This document shows positions 1,221 through 13,806 of a stretch of DNA of 50,361 nucleotides, in pieces. This DNA is from a virus (lineage: Duplodnaviria; Caudoviricetes), in the IMG/VR virus record IMGVR_UViG_3300009506_000050, positions 1-50,361 of that record; one strand, written 5' to 3'. Both the position numbers and the translations under genes were made by a program. The notes beneath the pieces were generated by a model, which was not told the DNA's origin, did not search any database, and saw only the letters and a list, made by a program, of their open reading frames with translations. Each line of letters starts with the position of its first letter. Positions within the stretch are counted from its first letter, which is position 1.

Positions 1221-1433
1221 ATGCCGAAAATCAGCGTTCCAGTAAATGATACCAAAGAATATGAAGCCTTCAGGGAGCATGCGAAGGCCAGGGGCTTTGA
1301 TGGGAACTTGGCGGCCTATGTCCGCTGGCTGATTAGGGATGATATGCGTCAATTGGAACTCGAAAAAGCCAATGGATTTCATCTTACCAAAAGGCGTGGT
1401 GAATTTCCTGGAGGAATTATACCTTCAAAATAA
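1221..1433 (+). CDS. Small ribbon-helix-helix-like DNA-binding protein
   Basis: N-terminal strand KISVPV then helices with NLAAYVRWLIR, a CopG/Arc-like pattern; good SD. Confidence 0.55.
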   Translation: MPKISVPVNDTKEYEAFREHAKARGFDGNLAAYVRWLIRDDMRQLELEKANGFHLTKRRGEFPGGIIPSK

Positions 1434-2335
1434 TGGATAATATCATTCAAATCAATTGGCAACGGTGTCCGATGTATCTATCCATGAAAAACAAGGTTTT
1501 TGTCTCCATTGTTTTTACGTGGCATCTTCCTTTGATTCGTCAATTCGCCCTCAACACTCATAAGAAAGTTATTGTTGGTGGACCTGCCACACAAATCATG
1601 CCTGACTATTTTCATGATGTCCAAAATGTACATGTTGAAACCAAGTCACCCATAAATTTCCTTGAGGCACATAATCCCCTTGCTACTTTTACCACACGGG
1701 GCTGTCCGAATACATGCTCATATTGCGCAGTTCCAAAGTTAGAGAAGCATTTTATTGAGCTTGAGAATTATCCTGTCAAGCCAGTCATATGTGATAATAA
1801 TTTCCTTGCCGCCTCAAGCGGGCATATCGAAAGATTTGTGGAAAAGGCAAAGGATCTTCCCTTTGTTGATTTTAATCAGGGACTTGATGCCAGACTTTTT
1901 ACAGAAGAGCATGCAAAGCTATTTAAACGCTTTCATCTTCCAATTATCAGGTTTGCAATGGATACAAAAGATCGTGAACTTGATGTTTTTCGGGCTATTG
2001 ATGTTTGTAGAAAGTTCGGAATCAATAATATATCTGTTTACGTTCTCATTAATCATGATGAAACGCCTGATGAAGCATTATATAAACTTGAAAGTCTGAA
2101 AAATTATGGCATCCAGACATTCCCGATGCGATATCAACCATTATGGTCTTTAAAATACAATGAATATATCAGCGACAAATGGCTTTATGCTTTCGGAGAT
2201 GAAGCAAATAAATGGTTAAAGGAAATCTGCCGCTATTACTCAATGTATAAACGCCTCGGAATCAAATCATTCGATATATGGATGGATGCAAGGCTAAAAG
2301 AAAACTCTTCATGTCACCAAGGATGCTTTCTATGA
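1433..2335 (+). CDS. Phage radical SAM protein
   Basis: TRGCPNTCSYC (CxxxCxxC), DNNFLA, DFNQGLDARL, upstream VGGP; visibly AT-rich. Confidence 0.85.
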   Translation: MDNIIQINWQRCPMYLSMKNKVFVSIVFTWHLPLIRQFALNTHKKVIVGGPATQIMPDYFHDVQNVHVETKSPINFLEAHNPLATFTTRGCPNTCSYCAVPKLEKHFIELENYPVKPVICDNNFLAASSGHIERFVEKAKDLPFVDFNQGLDARLFTEEHAKLFKRFHLPIIRFAMDTKDRELDVFRAIDVCRKFGINNISVYVLINHDETPDEALYKLESLKNYGIQTFPMRYQPLWSLKYNEYISDKWLYAFGDEANKWLKEICRYYSMYKRLGIKSFDIWMDARLKENSSCHQGCFL

Positions 2336-3609
2336 GCCTTGAGCCCTACTATCAGGAAAAAGGTATCACCCTATATGAAGGGGATTGCCGCGAGGCGATG
2401 GCGGCCATGCCTCGGGAAAGCATTGATACGATAATTACAGACCCGCCATATGGGCTTGAATTCATGGGTAAGGCATGGGATAGGGCGGTCCCTGGTCCCG
2501 ACTTCTGGACTCCGGCTCTCGATGTCTGCAAGCCTGGCGCCATGCTGATGGCCTTCGGCGGGACTCGGCTATATCATCGGATGATATGCGCTATCGAAGA
2601 TTCTGGATGGGAAATCCGCGACTGCCTCATGTGGCTTTATGGTTCGGGTTTCCCTAAGTCTCATGATATAAGCAAGGCGATTGATAAGGCGGTAGGAGCG
2701 GAGCGGGAGAAAATACAGCCCGGCAATGCCCCCTCTTATCAGCGTTCAATTGGGAATACTCGCCCATGGATGGACGATCCAAATCATAAAATTGATTCCA
2801 ACATCCCCGCATCCCCCGAGGCCGAGCAGTGGAATGGCTGGGGCACTGCCCTCAAGCCCGCATGGGAGCCCATAGTGCTTGCCATGAAGTCCCTGGACGG
2901 TACCTTTGCCCAGAACGCCCTCAGGCATGGCGTGGCGGGCCTGAATATTGACGGGGGGCGGATAGGATTGACAGAAAAAGATGCCCAAGCGATGGAGAGA
3001 TGTAATACTCCAGGTTCTGACTGTTTTCATAAATCAGAAGGCACCTCATATGGAAGGCCAACCCCATCTAAACCCTTGGATGTTACTCAAGGCCGCTGGC
3101 CCGCGAATCTAATACTGGATGAAGATACCGCTTTAATGCTTGACTCTCAAACTGGCGAACTGACAAGTGGTGATGCGCCCCTTAAAAGAAACAGTGATGT
3201 TTTCAGGGATTGTTACGGAGAGTTCAAGGGGAATTCTGTATGCCCCCCTGGTCGCACTAGCAATTCCGGCGGGGCTTCCCGCTTTTTCTATATCGCAAAG
3301 CCTGATGCCAAGGATCGCGGACATCGCGAAAAGGTTGAAATGCCTCTTTTCGATACAGTGGATAAGGGCTTTCGCAATACACATCCGACTGTCAAGCCTA
3401 CACCTTTGATGCATAGGCTTTTGGCATTACAGGCCTACCTTGCACGTCTCACTTCAACCCCTAAGGGCGGTATTGTTCTTGATCCTTTTGGCGGATCAGG
3501 TACGACGGCGATAGCTTGTCGCATGGTGGGCCGGGAATGCATCTTGATTGAAAAAGACAGAGAAAATCTTGATCTGACAATAGAACGGTTGAAGTTGAAA
3601 GGGTTTTAA
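2332..3609 (+). CDS. DNA N6-adenine/N4-cytosine methyltransferase (beta class)
   Basis: TDPPY catalytic motif, HPTVKP, VLDPFGGSGTT SAM-binding motif; ATGA overlap start at 2332. Confidence 0.92.
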   Translation: MSLEPYYQEKGITLYEGDCREAMAAMPRESIDTIITDPPYGLEFMGKAWDRAVPGPDFWTPALDVCKPGAMLMAFGGTRLYHRMICAIEDSGWEIRDCLMWLYGSGFPKSHDISKAIDKAVGAEREKIQPGNAPSYQRSIGNTRPWMDDPNHKIDSNIPASPEAEQWNGWGTALKPAWEPIVLAMKSLDGTFAQNALRHGVAGLNIDGGRIGLTEKDAQAMERCNTPGSDCFHKSEGTSYGRPTPSKPLDVTQGRWPANLILDEDTALMLDSQTGELTSGDAPLKRNSDVFRDCYGEFKGNSVCPPGRTSNSGGASRFFYIAKPDAKDRGHREKVEMPLFDTVDKGFRNTHPTVKPTPLMHRLLALQAYLARLTSTPKGGIVLDPFGGSGTTAIACRMVGRECILIEKDRENLDLTIERLKLKGF

Positions 3610-3835
3610 ATGAGTAACCGTATTACATGCCGACGTGATTGTCCATATGCCGCCTGTATAGATATCTGCGAGGATTATGGTAAAAAAATTACCGAAGGGC
3701 CTTCGTGCCAGAAATCCTAAAGAATACTTTCGGCGATACAGACAGATGCATAAAGATCATCATCGGAAATATGCCCGTGACTGGTATCATCGCAATAAGG
3801 CTTTGAAGGGGGCTTAACATGAAAGAGCATGGAAA

Positions 3836-5137
3836 ATGAATTATGCCACTGTCTGCTCGGGCATCGGGGCCCCAGAGGTCGCATGGAAGGACTTGTGGGG
3901 GCGTCCTGAGTTCGTCTCGGAAATAGAGCCATTCCCCTCCGCGGTCCTCAAGCATCACTATCCGGATGTCCCCAATTATGGGGATATGACCAAATACGAG
4001 GAGTGGCCTGACCATGAACTTGAGCTTATTTGCGGGGGAACCCCCTGCCAGTCCTTCTCAGTCGCCGGACTCAGAAAGGGAATGGATGACCCGCGCGGCA
4101 ACCTTACCCTTGTCTATCTCGGCATCCTTGCCCGATATAATCCCCGCTGGTTCATTTGGGAGAACGTCCCCGGTGTCTTTAGCTCCCGAAGCAATGGAGG
4201 CTCTGACTTCGGACGGTTCCTGTCCGCCCTGGCAGAACTCGGGTATAGTTGCGCCTACCGGGTGCTTGACGCTCAATACTTCGGAGTGCCCCAGCGCCGT
4301 CGTCGAGTCTTCGTTGTCGGACATCTTGGAGCGGACTGGAGACCACCTTACGCGGTACTATTTGAGCCCGAAAGCCTGCGCGGGAATCCTCCGAAGAGCG
4401 GAAAAGCGGGGGAAGGAACTGCCCGAGTTTTTGAAATCAGCCCTGGAGGCGCGGGCGAATGCGAAGTAATACCCACGTTTGACAGCCGATGCAAGGACGG
4501 ACCTATAAGGAATCAGATAGGCGCACTTGTCATGGCCCACGGGCAGGGGAACGCGGAGATATGCAGGGACGGGTCCCCGTCCCTCACCTGTAACCATGAG
4601 GCACCGATAGCTTTCATGGCCGGCCAGGGGGCAAAGGCAGGGAGCATTGCGGCAAGCGATAAGATAAGCCCTACCATTCGCAGTTCTGAAAGCGGCACGA
4701 ACAGAACGCCATGTGTAGCAATCCAGGACGGCAGGGGCATGGAGAAGGGCCAGAACGGTATCGGCATAACCGAGGGAGGGCCTGCATATACCCTTGACCA
4801 GACAGGAGCGCAAGCGGTCGCCTTCCAGCCCAAAGCCTCAGTCAGCCAGAGCATGAACCCATCCGAAACATGCCCCACCATCGGGACAACCAAGGAGCCG
4901 GGCATTATCCATAACACCATCGTCCGCCGCCTCACCCCCATCGAGTGCGAGAGGCTCCAGGGCTTCCCGGACAACTACACCCGCATCCCGTGGAAAAACA
5001 AGCCAGCCGACCTCTGCCCCGACGGCCCCCGATACAAGGCCCTCGGCAACTCCATGGCCGTCCCCGTGCTCCGGTGGATTGGCCAGCGTATCCAGTTATG
5101 GGAAAGCCTTGTAAAATCAGGCAAAATAAAGGCTTGA
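3836..5137 (+). CDS. DNA cytosine-5 methyltransferase
   Basis: CSGIGA (I), GGTPCQSFS (IV), WENVPG (VI), QRRRRVF (VIII), RRLTPIECERLQGFPD (IX), YKALGNS (X). Confidence 0.95.
   Translation: MNYATVCSGIGAPEVAWKDLWGRPEFVSEIEPFPSAVLKHHYPDVPNYGDMTKYEEWPDHELELICGGTPCQSFSVAGLRKGMDDPRGNLTLVYLGILARYNPRWFIWENVPGVFSSRSNGGSDFGRFLSALAELGYSCAYRVLDAQYFGVPQRRRRVFVVGHLGADWRPPYAVLFEPESLRGNPPKSGKAGEGTARVFEISPGGAGECEVIPTFDSRCKDGPIRNQIGALVMAHGQGNAEICRDGSPSLTCNHEAPIAFMAGQGAKAGSIAASDKISPTIRSSESGTNRTPCVAIQDGRGMEKGQNGIGITEGGPAYTLDQTGAQAVAFQPKASVSQSMNPSETCPTIGTTKEPGIIHNTIVRRLTPIECERLQGFPDNYTRIPWKNKPADLCPDGPRYKALGNSMAVPVLRWIGQRIQLWESLVKSGKIKA
4014..4469 (+). CDS. Nested +1-frame ORF resembling the M.EcoHK31I beta polypeptide
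   Basis: GAGGAG at 3998-4003 before ATG; WQNSG...NTSECPS..ESSLSDILE...YYLSPKACAGILRRAEKRGKELPE; resemblance recalled from memory. Confidence 0.65.
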   Translation: MNLSLFAGEPPASPSQSPDSEREWMTRAATLPLSISASLPDIIPAGSFGRTSPVSLAPEAMEALTSDGSCPPWQNSGIVAPTGCLTLNTSECPSAVVESSLSDILERTGDHLTRYYLSPKACAGILRRAEKRGKELPEFLKSALEARANAK

Positions 5138-5190: not shown

Positions 5191-5736
5191 ATGCTTAAAC
5201 CAATGTTAGTATCAGAGATTCCAGGCCATCGCGGGCGCATTCTCTCGCAGCCCTATGTTTTACTTCAGCCAAAGCTTGACGGCTGGTGCTGCATGGCCAA
5301 TACCCGCACACGCAAGATTTATACCCGCTCCGGCAATGAGATTACCACGCTGCCGCACATCAATGCTGCCCTTCCTAAAGGGGGTCCGGAATGGCTTCAT
5401 GGCGAACTATGGAAGCACGGGGCGACATGCGATACTGTCAGCGAGATGGTAAAAAATGGCGATCCAAGCCTTGAATTCCATGTTTTCGATTGCGTCAGCC
5501 AGGAACCCTATTCCGGGCGCTTGTACCGGATATCAAGCATACCGATGAATGAGACTATCAAAACAGTACCGACCTTTACCTCTGATAGCAACATAACACA
5601 GACCATCCGGGATGCCTATAATGCCTGCTTAGAGCGCGGTTACGAGGGCCTTATCATTCGCCTGGACGGTTACGGCTATGAGCATAAGCGAAGCATCAAT
5701 GTCTTCAAGATGAAGCCCGGCATCGAGGAGGTATAA
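5191..5736 (+). CDS. Minimal ATP-dependent ligase / nucleotidyltransferase (adenylation domain only)
   Basis: QPKLDG (motif I), YTRSG, LHGEL (III), FHVFD (IIIa), YEGLIIR (IV), FKMK (V), then stop. Confidence 0.8.
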   Translation: MLKPMLVSEIPGHRGRILSQPYVLLQPKLDGWCCMANTRTRKIYTRSGNEITTLPHINAALPKGGPEWLHGELWKHGATCDTVSEMVKNGDPSLEFHVFDCVSQEPYSGRLYRISSIPMNETIKTVPTFTSDSNITQTIRDAYNACLERGYEGLIIRLDGYGYEHKRSINVFKMKPGIEEV

Positions 5737-5737
5737 T

Positions 5738-5920
5738 ATGAGCGAGTCTGATAAATTTGTTGATGCTATGTTATTTTACGTCGCAGCATCACAAGGCATC
5801 CCCGTTAATATCCTCAAGGGCAGAATGATGATTGAGAATGAAAAGCGACACGGGTTTTATTTTATGCGCCGATATAATCAAGCCGGCCCGTGGGCCGACA
5901 TGCTAAAAGAGAGGATATAA
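5738..5920 (+). CDS. Hypothetical protein
   Basis: SD GGAGG; tightly packed with neighbours. Confidence 0.5.
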   Translation: MSESDKFVDAMLFYVAASQGIPVNILKGRMMIENEKRHGFYFMRRYNQAGPWADMLKERI

Positions 5921-7906: not shown

Positions 7907-8084
7907 AGGATCGGAAAACAAATGGCATGCCTTGATTTTCATATCCGGCATGTGGAGGGTTTTCTGTACTCCCTTTGCCATCGCAAAGGAAGTGCTGAAG
8001 CCGCATAGTTCCGCAAGAAGAGCCAGGGCCGCCGCAAACGACCTGGCGGCAAAGCTTAACATTAATCTTGAATGGGAGGACTAA
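7878..8084 (+). CDS. Hypothetical protein
   Basis: SD GGAGGTG. Confidence 0.5.
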   Translation: MMMLIKAKVRGSENKWHALIFISGMWRVFCTPFAIAKEVLKPHSSARRARAAANDLAAKLNINLEWED

Positions 8085-8088
8085 CAGG

Positions 8089-8973
8089 ATGGCAGGCGAT
8101 ATCGTAAAGCAGTCGGATAATATCAGGGACTTTTTGATGGTGCAGTTCAAGCCCATCATCAAGGACTATGCGACACGGGCATACAATGAGGATGCCTGGC
8201 TGAAATCGGCCATGATGTGCATCGTGGAATCAGAAGAGCTCCAGAAGTGCCTGGCCACACCGCAGGGCAAGGCAAGCCTTGTCCACGCTCTCAGATACGC
8301 GGCGGCCACCGGCCTTTCGCTTAACCCGCAGGAAGGCAAAGCCGCTCTTATCCCTTATGCCGGCAAGGTCGAGTATCAGGTAATGAAGGGCGGCATGATC
8401 GCGCTCGCCATGGCTTCCGGCAAGGTCGAATTCATAACCGCCGATACAGTGTATGAAAACGACGATTTCCAGATCGAAAAAACCATGGATGGCGACACCT
8501 ATCGCTTCAAGCCTGCCCTGAAGGACCGGGGCGACGCGCTCGGATATTTCGCGGCCCTCAGGATGACAAGCGGCACGGTACATGTCAAATGGATTGACAA
8601 GGCCAACATGGAAAAACACCGTGACCATTATGCCAAGGGCCTCCGGTATACCCATGAGGACAAGGCCAAGGGCATCAAAAAAGGCGAGCTCAAGCCCAAT
8701 CATGCCTGGGTCAAGTCCTTTGACGGCATGAGCCTTAAAACCGTCCTGAAGGCCCTCTTGCGCTCCCTGGAGATCAGCCCGGAACTCACAAGCGCGGTTG
8801 TCAGCGATGATCGCTTCGAGTCGGGGGAGATCCTTGATGTCACTCCCCGGGCCGAAGAGGCCGGAGCCTCTGCCGAAGACGTCAAGGAGCAAATGGCAGA
8901 GGTGGAAACCGAAGAGGCTGCCGGGACAAGCGAAGAGCCTCCGCAGGAAAAAACGGAAAAGGATTTATTCTAA
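8089..8973 (+). CDS. recT: RecT-family single-strand annealing protein
   Basis: AATGLSLNP..GKAALIPY, YQVMKGGM, VYENDDF, W...FDGM..KTVLK, acidic tail; follows the YqaJ gene. Confidence 0.9.
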   Translation: MAGDIVKQSDNIRDFLMVQFKPIIKDYATRAYNEDAWLKSAMMCIVESEELQKCLATPQGKASLVHALRYAAATGLSLNPQEGKAALIPYAGKVEYQVMKGGMIALAMASGKVEFITADTVYENDDFQIEKTMDGDTYRFKPALKDRGDALGYFAALRMTSGTVHVKWIDKANMEKHRDHYAKGLRYTHEDKAKGIKKGELKPNHAWVKSFDGMSLKTVLKALLRSLEISPELTSAVVSDDRFESGEILDVTPRAEEAGASAEDVKEQMAEVETEEAAGTSEEPPQEKTEKDLF

Positions 8974-8974
8974 A

Positions 8975-9123
8975 ATAGCGGTGGGGCGGGAGAGATACGC
9001 AACCTAAAAGCTGCCATTACCGGTGGATTGAAACGGAGGATAGATGTCCTCTGGCGGTAGGCGAGAATGGCACAACCTAATCGTCTCAATCATGCAAGGG
9101 AGAATGGCCCTTGTCACCGCTAT
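8975..9123 (+). ncRNA. tRNA-shaped structured element with a long central arm
   Basis: 9-bp closing stem, D-like GCG/CGC, T-like GCAAGGG/CCCTTGT with 7-nt loop, internal nested hairpins; no CCA. Confidence 0.5.
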
Positions 9124-9133
9124 CGCTTTAGAA

Positions 9134-9309
9134 CTGACTGGCGGCTTGAACGGTACCTGGATAGGACGCCGGGCCGCACTGGCCAAACAGGGCCGCAGTC
9201 AGGTCTAACCCGGGGCTGATGTATGGGTCAGGCGCATTTGGAAACAGGCTTGAGGGTTACAGCTTCCGGCCCTTGTTGCCCTAACCATCAGCCCCGCCCC
9301 TTCGGGGGC
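9134..9309 (+). ncRNA. Two long stem-closed elements plus a UUCG hairpin
   Basis: CTGACT-G-GCGGC/GCCGCAGTCAG (9134-9202); CGGGGCTGATG/CATCAGCCCCG (9211-9296); GCCCC-TTCG-GGGGC (9296-9309). Confidence 0.45.
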
Positions 9310-9323
9310 AGAAAGGAAAGGAT

Positions 9324-9593
9324 ATGGCTAAGAGCTTTATAGATGGACATGAGGTTTACTATGAAAGAGAGACCCGAACCTGGAAATGGAGCGATACCGA
9401 TGAACCCGTGGAAGCATCCAGGCCATGCCCCAAGTGCGAAAAGCTTCCCGTTAATGGCCATGATGACTGCCTGAAGAACTTGCCCGGCGTAAAATCTGCC
9501 TGTTGCGGCCACGGCAAAGAAACAGGCTATATCCTTTTTAACGATGGGACCATGATCCAGGGGCATTTTTCTATTAATAGGAAATGGGGGTAA
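9324..9593 (+). CDS. Cys/His-rich phage protein
   Basis: CPKC...HDDCL..LPGV.SACCGHG, a pattern I recall from phage proteins. Confidence 0.7.
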   Translation: MAKSFIDGHEVYYERETRTWKWSDTDEPVEASRPCPKCEKLPVNGHDDCLKNLPGVKSACCGHGKETGYILFNDGTMIQGHFSINRKWG

Positions 9594-9598
9594 ATGAG

Positions 9599-10351
9599 AT
9601 GAGCAATAGATTTTGGGATTTGGGCCCAATGGTGGTCACGGGCTGTACAAAGGTCAGCGAGGGATGTTTACGCTGCTGGAGCGAGACCGCCCATAACAGG
9701 CGATGCCATAATCCCGCGGTGGAGCATCTTTACAGAAAGGAGCTACTGACCAACGGGAAATTCAATGGCAACATACAGTTTAATTTGCAACAGCTTGAGC
9801 ATGCTGTCAAGACCCGAACGCCTAAGGTTATAAGTCCCTGGAACGACCTGTACCATGAGGCCCTTACAGTGGAGCAAATAGGGCAGGCCCACAGGATAAT
9901 GGCCAACAAGCGCAATGCTCACCACACTTTCCTGATAGTCACAAAAAGGGCCGACCGCGCGGCGGATTATTGCCAAGGGGTTTCGGATATATCCGGTGGC
10001 ATACAGGTACCCGATAATATGTGGCACCTCTTCACCTGCGAGAACCAGAAGCGGCTTGATGAGAGGATGCCCCATATCCTCCGCATCCCCGGCAAGAGGG
10101 GCGTGCTCATCGAGCCCTGTCTGGAGGGGGTGGACCTAGCTGAAAAGGGGCATGGGTGGCTTTTTGTTGATGAGCTTGCAGATGGTAGGCGGACAGGCAT
10201 CCACCAGGTCATCCTCGGCCCGGAGAACGGCCCCGGCAAGCGTCCCTTTGACCCGGCATGGGCGGACAGCGTCAAGTCCCAGTGCGCGGCCGCAGGAGTG
10301 CCATTTTACCGCAAGGACACTGGCGAAGGGACTCTTGCCTGGCGCATATAA
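9599..10351 (+). CDS. DUF5131 (phage Gp37/Gp68) family protein
   Basis: TGCTKVSEGCLRC, DLYHE, HTFLIVTKR, ENQ, EP.L, QC.AAGVPF..K. Confidence 0.88.
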   Translation: MSNRFWDLGPMVVTGCTKVSEGCLRCWSETAHNRRCHNPAVEHLYRKELLTNGKFNGNIQFNLQQLEHAVKTRTPKVISPWNDLYHEALTVEQIGQAHRIMANKRNAHHTFLIVTKRADRAADYCQGVSDISGGIQVPDNMWHLFTCENQKRLDERMPHILRIPGKRGVLIEPCLEGVDLAEKGHGWLFVDELADGRRTGIHQVILGPENGPGKRPFDPAWADSVKSQCAAAGVPFYRKDTGEGTLAWRI

Positions 10352-10401: not shown

Positions 10402-13077
10402 ATGCCAGAGAAAATTGATACCTCTCGTTACAAACCACTGCTTCGTGATTTTCTCATTCGCCGCGGCGTTAAAATAAATGAGAGGAAGCGGCCCAATACC
10501 GCCCAATGCCCTAACCCAAGCCATTCGGATGAAGATCCGAGTGCCATTATTTATCCCGAGAATCTTCATTGTCCCATATGCGCTTTAACATGGGATGTCT
10601 TTGAAGTCGCGGGACTTCTCGACGGATTGACTGATTTCCCTGACAAGCTGAAGGCGGTCCAGGATACACTGGGAATCAGCGAAGTCAAGCCCGCCGGGCC
10701 CGGAGGATCCAAACCTAAGGACTCCAAGAAAGACAAAAAGCCCAAATATGAAGCAGTCGCCCTTGAGCGGGAAAGGGCCCTTCAGGTCTATTCCCCCACC
10801 GCTCTTCTTGAACGCGCAAAAAGCGCGAAATGGCTTGAAGGGGATATCAGGCTTATCAAGGTCTGGCCCTACTACAATGCCGAGGGCCTGATTGATATTC
10901 TGGATGCCCGCTTTGAAAATGAGCACGGCAAAAAAGCAGTCATAACCTTTTATTATGATGGCAAGGTTTTGCGCTCCGCCGGCGCTCCGATTCTGCTTTA
11001 TAACCGGAACCTCATTGAAGCCGATAAGGAATCTCCTGTCCTGATAGTCGAAGGCGCGAAAGCCGCCGAGGCTGCGGCAACAATCCCCGGCTTCATTCCT
11101 GTCACATGGAATGGGGGGGGCAAAAAATGCAAGATGGCCGACTGGACTCCCTTGAAGGAAAGAACAGTCTATATCTGGCCTGATGATGACCAGAAAGTCT
11201 ATGACGAAAAGCATGCCTTGGCTGGCGAACTGAAGCCCGAGCACGAACAGCCGGGCATCAATACAGCCCTGACGATAAAGAATAGGCTTCCGCAAGCTAA
11301 AATCATTCGCCCAATGCCCGAGGCCCGGAGCATCAAGCCTGATGGGGCCGATATCGTGGAAGCCCTGTCGCTTCCGGATATCAGCCCCGAGGCTATCGCC
11401 GAATATATCCTGACAGCCGAAGAGATCAAGACACCTGCAAAGGAAGCCGCCCAATCCTCGAGACCCCCATCAAGCCCACCGTCAAATCCAATCGATACTG
11501 CCCGCGAAGAGCCGGAACCCGAACTCTTCCCTTTCCGAATTCTGGGGGTTGCCGATGACGCAAAGGGATACTTCCTGGACAGGCATGAACGCCTGACATC
11601 GATGTCACTCGGCTCGATAACACAGAATAAGCTTTTAACGCTGGCCCCCCTGACTTTCTGGCAAATTCACTTTGCCACTGGCAAGGGCGGCATTATGGGC
11701 AAGGATGACTGGATAGCGGCAATTGACGCGGTCATTCAGGTAGCAGGGCAAATGGATTTCGACCCTGACAGGATTCGTGGCCGGGGGGCATGGCGCGAGA
11801 GGGATGGCCGAATCTGCTATCACGATGGACTTAATACTCTGGGCGAGACAGGCGAGAATCGCCTGTATTTGCGCATGACCCGCAAGGATATAGGCCTCGG
11901 TAGCCCTTTGCCGGAATTGGAGCGTCTGACGGCCATTCTGGACGTCACAGGACAGCTTTCCTTTGAGACCCGCGCCGACATGATTCGCTGTATCGCATGG
12001 TCCACGCTGGCCCCCTTTGCCGGGGCCCTCCCCTGGCGCCCCGCCGGACTCTTGACGGGCCGCTCAGAATCAGGAAAATCGACAATTGTAGACATGATAA
12101 TCAAGCCCCTTTCACTTCCATTCGTATTCTCTGGCGGCGAAACAACCGAGGCTGGCGTCAGACAGACAATCAAGAATGACGCGACGGCCATCGTCATTGA
12201 GGAAGCGGAAACCGACACACCGAAGAAGCGACAGAGGCGCGACGATATCCTTTCCCTGATGCGCCAGTCCACCTCGGACGAAACCCCGAAGGCCGCAAAG
12301 GGGACCATTGACGGAAAAGGAATGATGTTTACCCTCCGGAGCATGTTCATGTTTGTCGCCATCAGCCCCGAGGTTGAATCTATCGCGGACGATAACCGCC
12401 TCTTCCGGGTAAACCTTGAGAAAAACAATAATGACTGGCCCACGCTGAAAAACAGGCTCGGGGAACTTTTGACGCCGGAGCTTTGTTCGTCCATCCGCGC
12501 CTTTACATGGTCCAGGATGACGGAAATATTTCGGCTAGCGGATATAATGTCTCCCGTAATACAGAAAGTGACGAACAAATCAAACCGCTATGCCCTGGCC
12601 GAAGCCATACTATTCGCGGCCTATCAGATAATCTGGAAGCAGGTCGAATTAAATGAAGATGACCTTTACAGGTTTTTCGAACAAATCTATGACTGGCAAC
12701 CGCCCGAAGAAAGCCGTGACGAAACCGAAGAGCTCCTTGACAGGCTTCTCGATGAAAGCATTCAGGAAGGCAAAGACAGATATACCCTTCGCGAGATCCT
12801 CCAGAAAGCGGACAGAGGGCCGTCAGATCCGGTTTATTTCAAGAGCATCGCGGGCCGTTACGGTCTCGGCCTGACGCCCGATGGCGATCTGGCTATTGCG
12901 AAAAATTTTCATGCCATATCCCGCATCATCGAGCGCGGGCGCGGATACCAGCGCATATTCTGGCGGCACCCCCTGCTTATAGCGAAGGGCCGCTCCGTAG
13001 CCATAGCGGGGAAGGTCCGCAACTGCCTTGTAATCGATAAAAAGATACTGACCGAGTCAGGGGAAGAGGTTTTCTAA
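10402..13077 (+). CDS. Primase-helicase (Zn finger + TOPRIM + P-loop NTPase)
   Basis: CPNPSH.D..PS...HCPIC; IVEG..AA and WPDDD (TOPRIM); GRSESGKS Walker A, IVIEE Walker B. Confidence 0.85.
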   Translation: MPEKIDTSRYKPLLRDFLIRRGVKINERKRPNTAQCPNPSHSDEDPSAIIYPENLHCPICALTWDVFEVAGLLDGLTDFPDKLKAVQDTLGISEVKPAGPGGSKPKDSKKDKKPKYEAVALERERALQVYSPTALLERAKSAKWLEGDIRLIKVWPYYNAEGLIDILDARFENEHGKKAVITFYYDGKVLRSAGAPILLYNRNLIEADKESPVLIVEGAKAAEAAATIPGFIPVTWNGGGKKCKMADWTPLKERTVYIWPDDDQKVYDEKHALAGELKPEHEQPGINTALTIKNRLPQAKIIRPMPEARSIKPDGADIVEALSLPDISPEAIAEYILTAEEIKTPAKEAAQSSRPPSSPPSNPIDTAREEPEPELFPFRILGVADDAKGYFLDRHERLTSMSLGSITQNKLLTLAPLTFWQIHFATGKGGIMGKDDWIAAIDAVIQVAGQMDFDPDRIRGRGAWRERDGRICYHDGLNTLGETGENRLYLRMTRKDIGLGSPLPELERLTAILDVTGQLSFETRADMIRCIAWSTLAPFAGALPWRPAGLLTGRSESGKSTIVDMIIKPLSLPFVFSGGETTEAGVRQTIKNDATAIVIEEAETDTPKKRQRRDDILSLMRQSTSDETPKAAKGTIDGKGMMFTLRSMFMFVAISPEVESIADDNRLFRVNLEKNNNDWPTLKNRLGELLTPELCSSIRAFTWSRMTEIFRLADIMSPVIQKVTNKSNRYALAEAILFAAYQIIWKQVELNEDDLYRFFEQIYDWQPPEESRDETEELLDRLLDESIQEGKDRYTLREILQKADRGPSDPVYFKSIAGRYGLGLTPDGDLAIAKNFHAISRIIERGRGYQRIFWRHPLLIAKGRSVAIAGKVRNCLVIDKKILTESGEEVF

Positions 13078-13806
13078 ATGAATCATATTGTTGCTTTATC
13101 AGGTGGCAAAGATAGTACAGCTATGGCATTACGATTACGTGAAGTAGAACCAAGGCATTATATTTATATTTGTACTCCTACTGGCGATGAATTGCCAGAA
13201 ATGGATGCGCATTGGCATAATCTAGAGAATAAATTAGGCCAACCAATTATACGTCTTGCAGATAGCGAAAATCCAACGATTTATGATTTAATTGATCAGA
13301 TGCATATGCTACCGAATTGGCGTGCTAGATGGTGTACAAGAATATTAAAAATTGAGCTTGCTCAAAGATTTTACGAATTAATACATCCGGCAATTATCTA
13401 CGTTGGCTTACGAGCAGACGAACCAGACAGGAAAGGCAATAAACTTTACGACGAAAATATTCATCAGCGATTTCCCATGCAAGATTGGGGTTGGAGGATT
13501 GCCGATGTAAAAAATTATCTGAAACAGAAAAATATTGATATTCCACGTCGCACGGATTGCGCTATGTGTTTTTATCAGCGCATAGATGAATGGTATATGC
13601 TTTGGCGTGATTATCCACAATACTTTGAACGCATTGAGGCTATTGAAAAGAAATTGGGTCATACACTTTTAAGTCCTGGCAAATGGAAAAATTGGCCACA
13701 TGCTTTACATGATTTACGTAAAGTTTTTGAAAGTGGCAAAATTCCTTCCAAAATAATCCATGAAAAAGAAATATGTTCAGATAAATGCAGAGCATGTTCA
13801 ATATAA
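13078..13806 (+). CDS. PAPS-reductase-like (PP-loop, probable Fe-S) protein
   Basis: LSGGKDS, RWCT..LK, GLRADE, RTDCAMCF; AT-rich relative to its flanks. Confidence 0.85.
   Translation: MNHIVALSGGKDSTAMALRLREVEPRHYIYICTPTGDELPEMDAHWHNLENKLGQPIIRLADSENPTIYDLIDQMHMLPNWRARWCTRILKIELAQRFYELIHPAIIYVGLRADEPDRKGNKLYDENIHQRFPMQDWGWRIADVKNYLKQKNIDIPRRTDCAMCFYQRIDEWYMLWRDYPQYFERIEAIEKKLGHTLLSPGKWKNWPHALHDLRKVFESGKIPSKIIHEKEICSDKCRACSI

Follow-up and report, generated by a model that had tools for sequence, protein, structure and literature searches.

A swappable non-coding cassette behind recT in a tailed phage, tentatively read as a small structured RNA

What occupies the longest gap in the early gene block of a tailed phage? 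In the IMG/VR virus record IMGVR_UViG_3300009506_000050, analysed here over its whole length of 50,361 bases (the window), 350 nucleotides (nt; 8974–9323) separate the stop codon of recT from the next gene, which encodes a protein of 89 amino acids (aa); no other gap in the densely packed plus-strand early block is as long. One base past the stop codon begins a closed multi-hairpin domain of 149 nt (8975–9123, plus strand; domain 1 of the gap, hereafter the element). The initial annotation had described it as a transfer RNA (tRNA)-shaped RNA carrying a long structured arm in place of the anticodon arm, that is, as a tRNA-mimic scaffold. Our preferred reading, held tentatively, is that the element is an allele of an exchangeable accessory non-coding cassette lying between recT and the replication genes and most likely specifies a small structured RNA, to which we assign no role.

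Replacement of the element in sister phages

Twelve public metagenome runs from four studies, none of them recorded as RNA, hold part of positions 8600–9700, and contigs from four of these runs (X2, X3, X7 and X8; one per study) were aligned on the stretch. One contig each from X2, X7 and X8 agrees with the window as far as 8972 and resumes the match at 9117, skipping the 144 letters at 8973–9116 and carrying 94, 100 or 101 other letters, respectively, in their place (record coordinates). This swappable cassette (8973–9116, no strand assigned) covers 142 of the 149 bases of the element, while the sequence from 9117 onward is shared with the phages of the other form. The window's own form recurred in the X3 contig (record 4; 8689–9155, 5 differences in 467 nt) and in a short, minor contig of low depth from X8 (record 15; 8937–9144, 9 differences in 208 nt). 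As X8 holds the other form as its major and the window's form as its minor variant, both coexist in one sample. Flanking genes differ at 2–9% of places in the relatives, and the immediate flanks of the cassette are near-identical. With other letters between matching flanks in three of the four runs and the window's form in two, the element is thus one allele of a swappable cassette.

The persistence of two cassettes at one site in near-identical phages, even within a single sample, speaks for an accessory function and not for a housekeeping signal, and the cassette probably plays its part in phage–host conflict; cassettes exchanged between near-identical phages are the usual place of counter-defence genes. 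How such an allele might work can be sketched as follows. Since no sigma-70-like promoter or intrinsic terminator was found on the plus strand between recT and the next gene, the early plus-strand operon would be read through recT into the cassette. By prediction, the 149 nt form an independent domain with four or five internal hairpins, closed by a perfect helix of 9 base pairs (bp). This domain may be cut out of the transcript, or survive as a stable piece, and could then target, in trans, a factor of the host or the phage.

Predicted fold, coding potential and relatives

Direct reading of the sequence recovered every helix and repeat that the initial annotation had listed, and a script check found all 38 pairs of the structure drawn there to be standard, three of them G-U. 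The closing stem joins ATAGCGGTG (8975–8983) to CACCGCTAT (9115–9123) and forms a perfect 9-nt inverted repeat (I4). Inside it, the minimum free energy (MFE) fold of the plus strand contains a D-like arm (8986–9000; GCG at 8986–8988 and CGC at 8998–9000 around the 9-nt loop GGAGAGAUA), a local hairpin, CUGCC-AUUACC-GGUGG, followed by AUUGAAAC (9011–9034), an 8-bp hairpin (9034–9053; CGGAGGAT at 9034–9041 and GTCCTCTG at 9046–9053, as RNA CGGAGGAU-AGAU-GUCCUCUG), and a T-like arm (9094–9114) whose 7-bp stem (GCAAGGG, 9094–9100; CCCTTGT, 9108–9114) encloses the loop AGAATGG and adjoins the 3′ closing strand.

Instead of the local hairpin, the initial annotation had nested the 8-bp hairpin in a long plus-strand arm (9012–9072) built from TGCCATT (9012–9018) with AATGGCA (9066–9072) and ACCG (9019–9022) with CGGT (9055–9058). 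These pairs are valid, but the whole structure reaches −45.5 kcal/mol, 7 above the MFE, which forms CUGCC/GGUGG in this place; by the energy model, the long arm is one alternative and not the preferred fold. The two copies of the direct repeat CAACCTAA that had been noted around it (9000–9007 and 9073–9080, plus strand) were recovered by a repeat search at these sites and nowhere else in the window, but are not significant on their own (two matches against 0.86 expected; 19 of 100 shuffles reach two). GGATTGAAAC has one exact copy in the window. By comparison, perfect 9-mer inverted-repeat seeds are enriched about 11-fold in the gap, which holds four against 0.35 per 350 nt window-wide.

The plus-strand MFE was −52.7 kcal/mol, whereas dinucleotide shuffles gave −42.5 ± 3.8 (z −2.69; 2 of 200 equally good), and the fold, as a prediction, is real and moderately above chance. 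The minus strand folds about equally well (−49.1 kcal/mol, z −3.19; none of 200 shuffles equal), so that energy leaves the choice of strand undecided; one and the same structure is nevertheless 5 kcal/mol better on the plus strand than mirrored on the minus strand, owing to the three G-U pairs.

The only open reading frame (ORF) with a ribosome-binding site starts at ATG 9044, 3 nt behind GGAGGA (9035–9040), and would encode 54 aa (9044–9208); the record's gene caller picked a 38-aa version of it (P0124). A small protein gene would account for the ribosome-binding site and for a frame that is open to 9208, where an A>G change in X8 turns the stop codon TAA into TAG, still a stop. Yet the 38-aa call was the only match of the 54-aa frame among 5.8 billion protein clusters (1.84 billion representatives), Pfam and PHROG gave none, and the frame straddles the cassette boundary, its start and first 24 codons lying in the swapped segment and the remainder in shared sequence. 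Moreover, the differences listed for the three bridging contigs (X2, X7 and X8), a list to which 33 more would have to be added, include no change at 9117–9207, against 2–9% in the flanking genes, which is unlike synonymous drift. In the predicted fold, GGAGGA and ATG 9044 are locked in the 8-bp hairpin, the 3′ strand of which offers an anti-Shine-Dalgarno-like UCCUC. A search for called ORFs crossing the cassette junction found none, and a 60-aa frame on the minus strand had no match in the protein cluster search. Coding is unlikely, and a gene for the 54-aa peptide most improbable; the region, for which a coding role had been named as the finding that would overturn the initial annotation, appears non-coding, given the lack of relatives of the frame and its crossing of the boundary.

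Relatives of the element itself were sought by way of RecT and directly. A RecT profile search of IMG/VR, JGI metagenomes and GTDB genomes returned relatives of 33–58% identity, which lack the element; closer ones (60–69% identity) were seen as proteins only. The long gap after recT is absent in most relatives, and blastn and nhmmer searches of the gap against 60 RecT-relative loci found no similar DNA. No homologue of the element emerged from RecT as a single query in IMG/VR or from blastn of 8960–9330 against INPHARED phages, and exact words of 20, 38 and 37 nt from the element and the adjoining domain 2 matched nothing in IMG/VR or GTDB genomes. Compared with its own record, the element finds only itself and is single-copy in the phage. 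A covariance model of the element, run with default filters on 53 loci, likewise found no match. A search for RNA-duplex targets over 79 start regions and 5008 tiles produced no outlier, only unrealistic duplexes with long loops. No family membership can be claimed for the element.

Several of these results weigh against a small structured RNA: the z-score is modest, the minus strand folds as well and would allow a role at the DNA level, the lack of a homologue in any search means that there is no covariation, and the window-type copy in X8, changed at 9 of 208 places, is not unusually conserved. An explanation at the DNA level would cast the inverted repeats as a priming or replication start for the primase-helicase, as a recombination hot spot for cassette exchange, or as the ends of an insertion resembling a miniature inverted-repeat transposable element (MITE). 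Besides the fold of the minus strand, it can draw on the position of the element upstream of replication genes (primase-helicase, 10402–13077), on the perfect 9-bp terminal inverted repeats and on the presence or absence of the piece as a unit. It has to contend with a region devoid of iterons and of any AT-rich stretch (GC content about 0.52–0.56), with repeats of only 8–9 nt in two copies, with a single copy in the phage and none elsewhere in the sequences searched, and with sister phages that carry another piece of 94–101 nt rather than an empty site. The three G-U pairs, too, become mismatches on the other strand. Taken together, we consider a DNA-level element unlikely, if still worth some weight. 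A MITE-like mobile element in particular was rejected: its 9-bp inverted ends are present, but target-site duplications at the ends and multiple copies are not.

Relation to tRNAs and tRNA-like RNAs

Among 32 distinct RecT-relative loci with enough sequence 3′ of recT, four (L011, the L004 group, L042 and L054) have a tRNA or tRNA-like gene, as detected by Rfam and ARAGORN, that starts less than 300 nt past the recT stop. Several genes of the wider set of relatives carry inserts. Those of L008 (4369–4508, 140 nt), L050 (953–1058, 106 nt) and L004 (4002–4108, 107 nt) match the full tRNA model at 37.8–48.6 bits, with 76, 43 and 52 nt, respectively, replacing the anticodon loop or arm, for which the model allots 9, 11 and 17. 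ARAGORN with introns allowed reads the L050 gene (48.6 bits in Rfam) as tRNA-Ala(UGC) with the G3-U70 identity pair and a 32-nt hairpin inside the anticodon loop, and calls a 141-nt gene in L011 (1075–1215), 98 nt after recT. Judged from these gene models, tRNAs whose anticodon arm has given way to a long arm are a genuine theme among phages of this group. Short, 'enigmatic' introns or inserts in the anticodon arm have also been described for tRNA genes of Lak megaphages (Devoto et al. 2019, PMC6784885).

As further observations on these genes, full acceptor, D and T arms accompany the 45–76 extra nt in the anticodon region of L008, L004 and L011; the 3′ junction of the L050 insert was read inside a helix and not as a bulge-helix-bulge motif; a 75-nt paralogue sharing its acceptor stem precedes the L004 gene by 100 nt; and the L011 and L004 genes have a class II (Leu-like) D arm.

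The element resembles the insert-bearing phage tRNAs (L050, L008, L004, L011 and those of the Lak megaphages) in size (149 against 106–141 nt), in its acceptor-type closing stem, in the long folded piece that replaces the anticodon arm and in the direct repeats that border this insert; with the L004 and L011 genes, it also shares the slot after recT. Unlike the element, those genes have retained canonical D and T arms, and Rfam (37.8–48.6 bits) or ARAGORN with introns detects them. Once the insert is taken out, they become tRNAs again (for L050, the tRNA-Ala(UGC)), whereas none of 7750 derivatives of the element lacking one internal segment of 15–114 nt was called by ARAGORN, as was also the case for three shuffled controls.

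The expectation that neither program would find a canonical tRNA was borne out. ARAGORN called no tRNA or transfer-messenger RNA (tmRNA) in the window, even with introns of up to 150–200 nt allowed; calls arose only when thresholds were dropped to 70–80%, and then at other coordinates. Rfam 15 at gathering thresholds had no match in the whole window, including for the tRNA model RF00005, and at E ≤ 10 over 8965–9130 returned no tRNA, tmRNA, Y RNA, C4 or other tRNA-like family; the matches there were CRISPR-DR10 and a trypanosome small nucleolar RNA only.

In tRNAs, a 5-bp stem carries a 7-nt loop with the T-loop motif U54-U55-C56-R57-A58, and the GG of the D-loop completes the elbow. The T-like loop of the element, AGAAUGG on a 7-bp stem, is no T-loop and lacks the U..A frame, and the D-like loop lacks the GG. 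The acceptor/T-type stack is 9+7 bp compared with 7+5 in tRNA, and the 3′ flank reads CGCTTT, without RCCA. Direct reading thereby bore out the statement of the initial annotation that a TTCRA loop, an anticodon arm and CCA are all missing. What is tRNA-like is the spacing of the junctions, with 2 nt (GG, 8984–8985) between the closing stem and the D-like arm and 0 nt between the T-like arm (9114) and the 3′ closing strand (9115). Removal of 9008–9080 leaves 76 nt devoid of an anticodon stem.

A tRNA mimic in the sense of the initial annotation would imitate the acceptor/T stack with its closing stem and T-like arm, be trimmed from the operon transcript by RNase P or RNase Z, or serve as a decoy for a host anticodon nuclease. 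The parts of this proposal that stand are a closed, non-coding multi-hairpin domain, its tRNA-like junction spacing and a position that holds tRNA or insert-bearing tRNA-like genes in the four relatives. With filters off, the covariance model of the element applied to six loci also placed three of its four top hits on tRNA or tRNA-like genes, but at E values of only 0.75–1.2; these hits are a likeness of outline, not homology. Local alignment of the 5′ and 3′ parts of the element to ten tRNA or tRNA-like genes of the relatives was not significant (best z 2.2; 40 of 1000 shuffles equal). No anticodon loop is available for a nuclease to cut, which speaks against a decoy. Outline and slot thus lend mimicry partial support, and every recognisable tRNA signature opposes it. 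From its sequence features, the element is neither a tRNA nor recognisable as a tRNA mimic, only its junction spacing being tRNA-like; we do not think that it works as one, as the loops that tRNA enzymes recognise are missing, whether lost or never present, from an outline that seems to have been kept. A mimicry function is accordingly rated as distinctly unlikely.

The same mixture of tRNA-like outline, missing tRNA loops and tRNA slot in relatives would suit a functionless remnant, namely a decayed tRNA or tRNA-like gene or a leftover insert that folds by happenstance, and the lack of relatives and the modest z-score also agree with it. Decay would not be expected to leave perfect stems that are longer than those of a tRNA (9 and 7 bp), and the same form occurs in samples of two further studies at about 96–99% identity. 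We regard a remnant as unlikely. If the element is inert, it would teach that a tRNA-like outline lacking T-loop and D-loop signatures is no evidence of tRNA mimicry.

Other tRNA-like RNAs provide further points of comparison. RNA C and RNA D of phage T4 and RNA1 and RNA2 of T5 are small, stable, anticodon-less tRNA-like RNAs of ~120–145 nt encoded among or beside phage tRNA genes, and are described as keeping tRNA-type ends and loops. The element is likewise tRNA-like in outline, but has neither a T-loop nor the GG of a D-loop nor a 7+5 stack. C4 of phages P1 and P7 and CI of P4 are antisense RNAs that are cut from a phage operon transcript and processed by RNase P. The small RNA proposed here would resemble them in its origin from an operon transcript, and its allelic forms would recall P1/P7 heteroimmunity. 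Unlike for C4 and CI, no Rfam family reaches threshold on the element, and the likeness to C4 RNAs suggested by the initial annotation was not upheld, the C4 family being absent even at E ≤ 10. The 200 nt downstream, where a cis target would lie, are common to phages with different cassettes, which argues against co-varying pairs of RNA and target.

YrlA-type Y RNAs of bacteria and phages, encoded near Ro60, contain a tRNA-like domain with nearly invariant T and D stem-loops and tertiary pairs (Chen et al. 2014, PMC4201824). The element is like YrlA in being a non-coding RNA candidate of tRNA-type outline with a long helix in the position of the anticodon arm, and unlike it in that the ends of YrlA sit on the long helix and not on an acceptor stem, and in lacking YrlA features and an Rfam hit.

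Small non-coding RNAs of phages are poorly catalogued. If a stable RNA is made from the element, it would represent an orphan family in a slot that relatives use for tRNAs and insert-bearing tRNA genes, and would link two questions: what anticodon-less and insert-bearing tRNA-like phage RNAs are for, and how broadly RNA decoys are used.

A CRISPR-like piece and the surrounding sequence

The only sub-threshold Rfam hit of note on the element was to CRISPR-DR10, a family of repeats from clustered regularly interspaced short palindromic repeat (CRISPR) arrays (9007–9034; 17.8 bits against a gathering threshold of 39, E 0.1–0.43, with 0.1 for the 166-nt search). A periodic pattern scan of GTDB genomes showed that at least 120 arrays have repeats terminating, on their 3′ side, in GTGGATTGAAAC, which lies at 9023–9034 of the window; among those listed, repeats are mostly 32–33 nt long and of the form GTCGC...GCGTGGATTGAAAC. 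The local hairpin together with AUUGAAAC is identical to such repeat ends over 12–14 bases. When 108 array repeats, chosen by a shared 12-mer and not drawn from the published set of 17,823 repeats (PMC10651486), were aligned to the gap by blastn, the best hit comprised 14 identical nt at 28.2 bits.

Solitary repeat units, or RNA anti-CRISPRs, sit in intergenic regions of phages and are sometimes co-transcribed with the upstream gene, and the SRUFinder rule for calling them demands at least 41.1 bits by blastn to a known CRISPR repeat (Camara-Wilpert et al. 2023, PMC10651486). The element is like them in lying between genes, just 3′ of one with which it is plausibly co-transcribed, and in having a hairpin followed by a repeat-type handle, with neither cas genes nor a full array adjoining. 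It differs in the shortness of the similarity (12–14 nt; 28.2 against 41.1 bits) and in that the piece is embedded in a larger closed fold. As a solitary CRISPR repeat by the SRUFinder rule, the element was rejected, its score falling below the cut-off.

Seen as a mimic of a CRISPR repeat, the CUGCC/GGUGG hairpin and AUUGAAAC would imitate the repeat end bound by Cas6 or Cas5, so as to tie up Cas proteins as an RNA anti-CRISPR, or would belong to a mini-array with a single spacer, the 38 nt up to the second CAACCTAA. In its favour, besides the resemblances above, a swapped cassette would fit a counter-defence gene, and the geometry of 36 nt plus 38 nt in the window equals that of one array (L092; 36-nt repeats, 38-nt spacers). 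But the Rfam score is under half of the gathering threshold, and no array shares the 5′ part of the candidate repeat: searches of GTDB representative genomes gave 11 single hits at chance level in one case and one in the other. In IMG/VR, the pattern from repeat to CAACCTAA had no match and the hairpin-plus-handle pattern a single one, within a 503-aa ORF. A viral mini-array was rejected outright, given that its second 'repeat' agrees with the other copy in the initial 8 nt and thereafter at 8 of 27, and that no protospacer was found, the putative spacer having no target in INPHARED or IMG/VR; the spacer itself forms the 8-bp hairpin. Although a CRISPR mimic is thus decidedly doubtful, hairpin and AUUGAAAC, with their likeness to the Cas-binding end of a CRISPR repeat, would be the most concrete candidate for the active part of the small RNA that we favour. 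The L092 array (5724–5918, minus strand) belongs to an Aureispira metagenome-assembled genome, and its 36-nt repeat is unstructured and ends in GGTGGATTGAAAC, unlike the 32–33-nt repeats, of the form GTCGC...GCGTGGATTGAAAC, of most of the other arrays.

One speculative combination of these themes, which we consider improbable, is a tRNA-derived scaffold whose acceptor/D/T frame would display hairpin and AUUGAAAC as a Cas-binding handle and titrate host Cas5 or Cas6, while the 94–101-nt cassettes of the sister phages might be aimed at other host systems. Such a scaffold decoy, in which hairpin and handle would take the place of the anticodon arm, would give RNA anti-CRISPRs a new kind of architecture and would parallel, in nature, the 'tRNA scaffold' trick of the laboratory.

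The gap as a whole is predicted to comprise three separately closed domains (8975–9123, 9128–9208 and 9211–9296) and a UUCG hairpin before the next ribosome-binding site. Domain 2 (9128–9208, plus strand) is a long bulged hairpin closed by TTAGAACTGACTG/CAGTCAGGTCTAA (inverted repeat I2), domain 3 (9211–9296, plus strand) is closed by GGGGCTGATG/CATCAGCCCC (inverted repeat I1), and the hairpin GCCCC-UUCG-GGGGC (9296–9309, plus strand) lies immediately 5′ of the ribosome-binding site of the 89-aa gene. Changes in the sister phages within 9208–9262 fall mostly at predicted apical loops of domain 3 (five of seven places unpaired), and 9208 A>G keeps its pair as G-U. In this model, 9117–9323 resembles a conserved, structured leader belonging to the 89-aa gene.

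Domains 2 and 3 (9117–9323) are common to phages with either cassette, with changes, among them 1-nt deletions, clustering at 9239–9262. Where the gap ends and the 89-aa gene starts, at ~9324, the X8 sister contig (record 14) is longer by about 213 letters (its positions 400 to 614), which marks another hot spot of insertion, 200 nt away from the first. Positions 9151–9214 weakly match the DUF3085 RNA motif RF02959 (17.6 bits against a gathering threshold of 40.6, E 1.8); the conserved letters of the motif are mostly matched there, and Pfam gives no DUF3085 domain for the downstream gene. Weak Rfam matches to microRNA and PhotoRC-I models in the gap were discarded as noise.

The gap is bounded upstream by recT (8068–8973, plus strand; stop codon TAA at 8971–8973), which encodes a single-strand annealing protein of the RecT family (Pfam PF03837, E 2.1e-26; PHROG 148), and downstream by the 89-aa gene (9324–9593, plus strand), whose phage protein has no Pfam or PHROG match and no assigned function and falls into Atlas clusters of viral hypothetical proteins. 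The minus strand of the record encodes a lambda-type portal and terminase, an E-type major capsid protein, a Clp protease and Mu-like baseplate genes, and the plus-strand early block DNA methylases, a YqaJ exonuclease, RecT, a DUF5131 protein, the primase-helicase and a PAPS reductase. This block is rich in genes of DNA-modification type (1433–5137, 9584–10351 and 13078–13806), for a radical SAM protein, an N6/N4 methylase, a C5 methylase, the DUF5131 protein and the PAPS-reductase-like protein.

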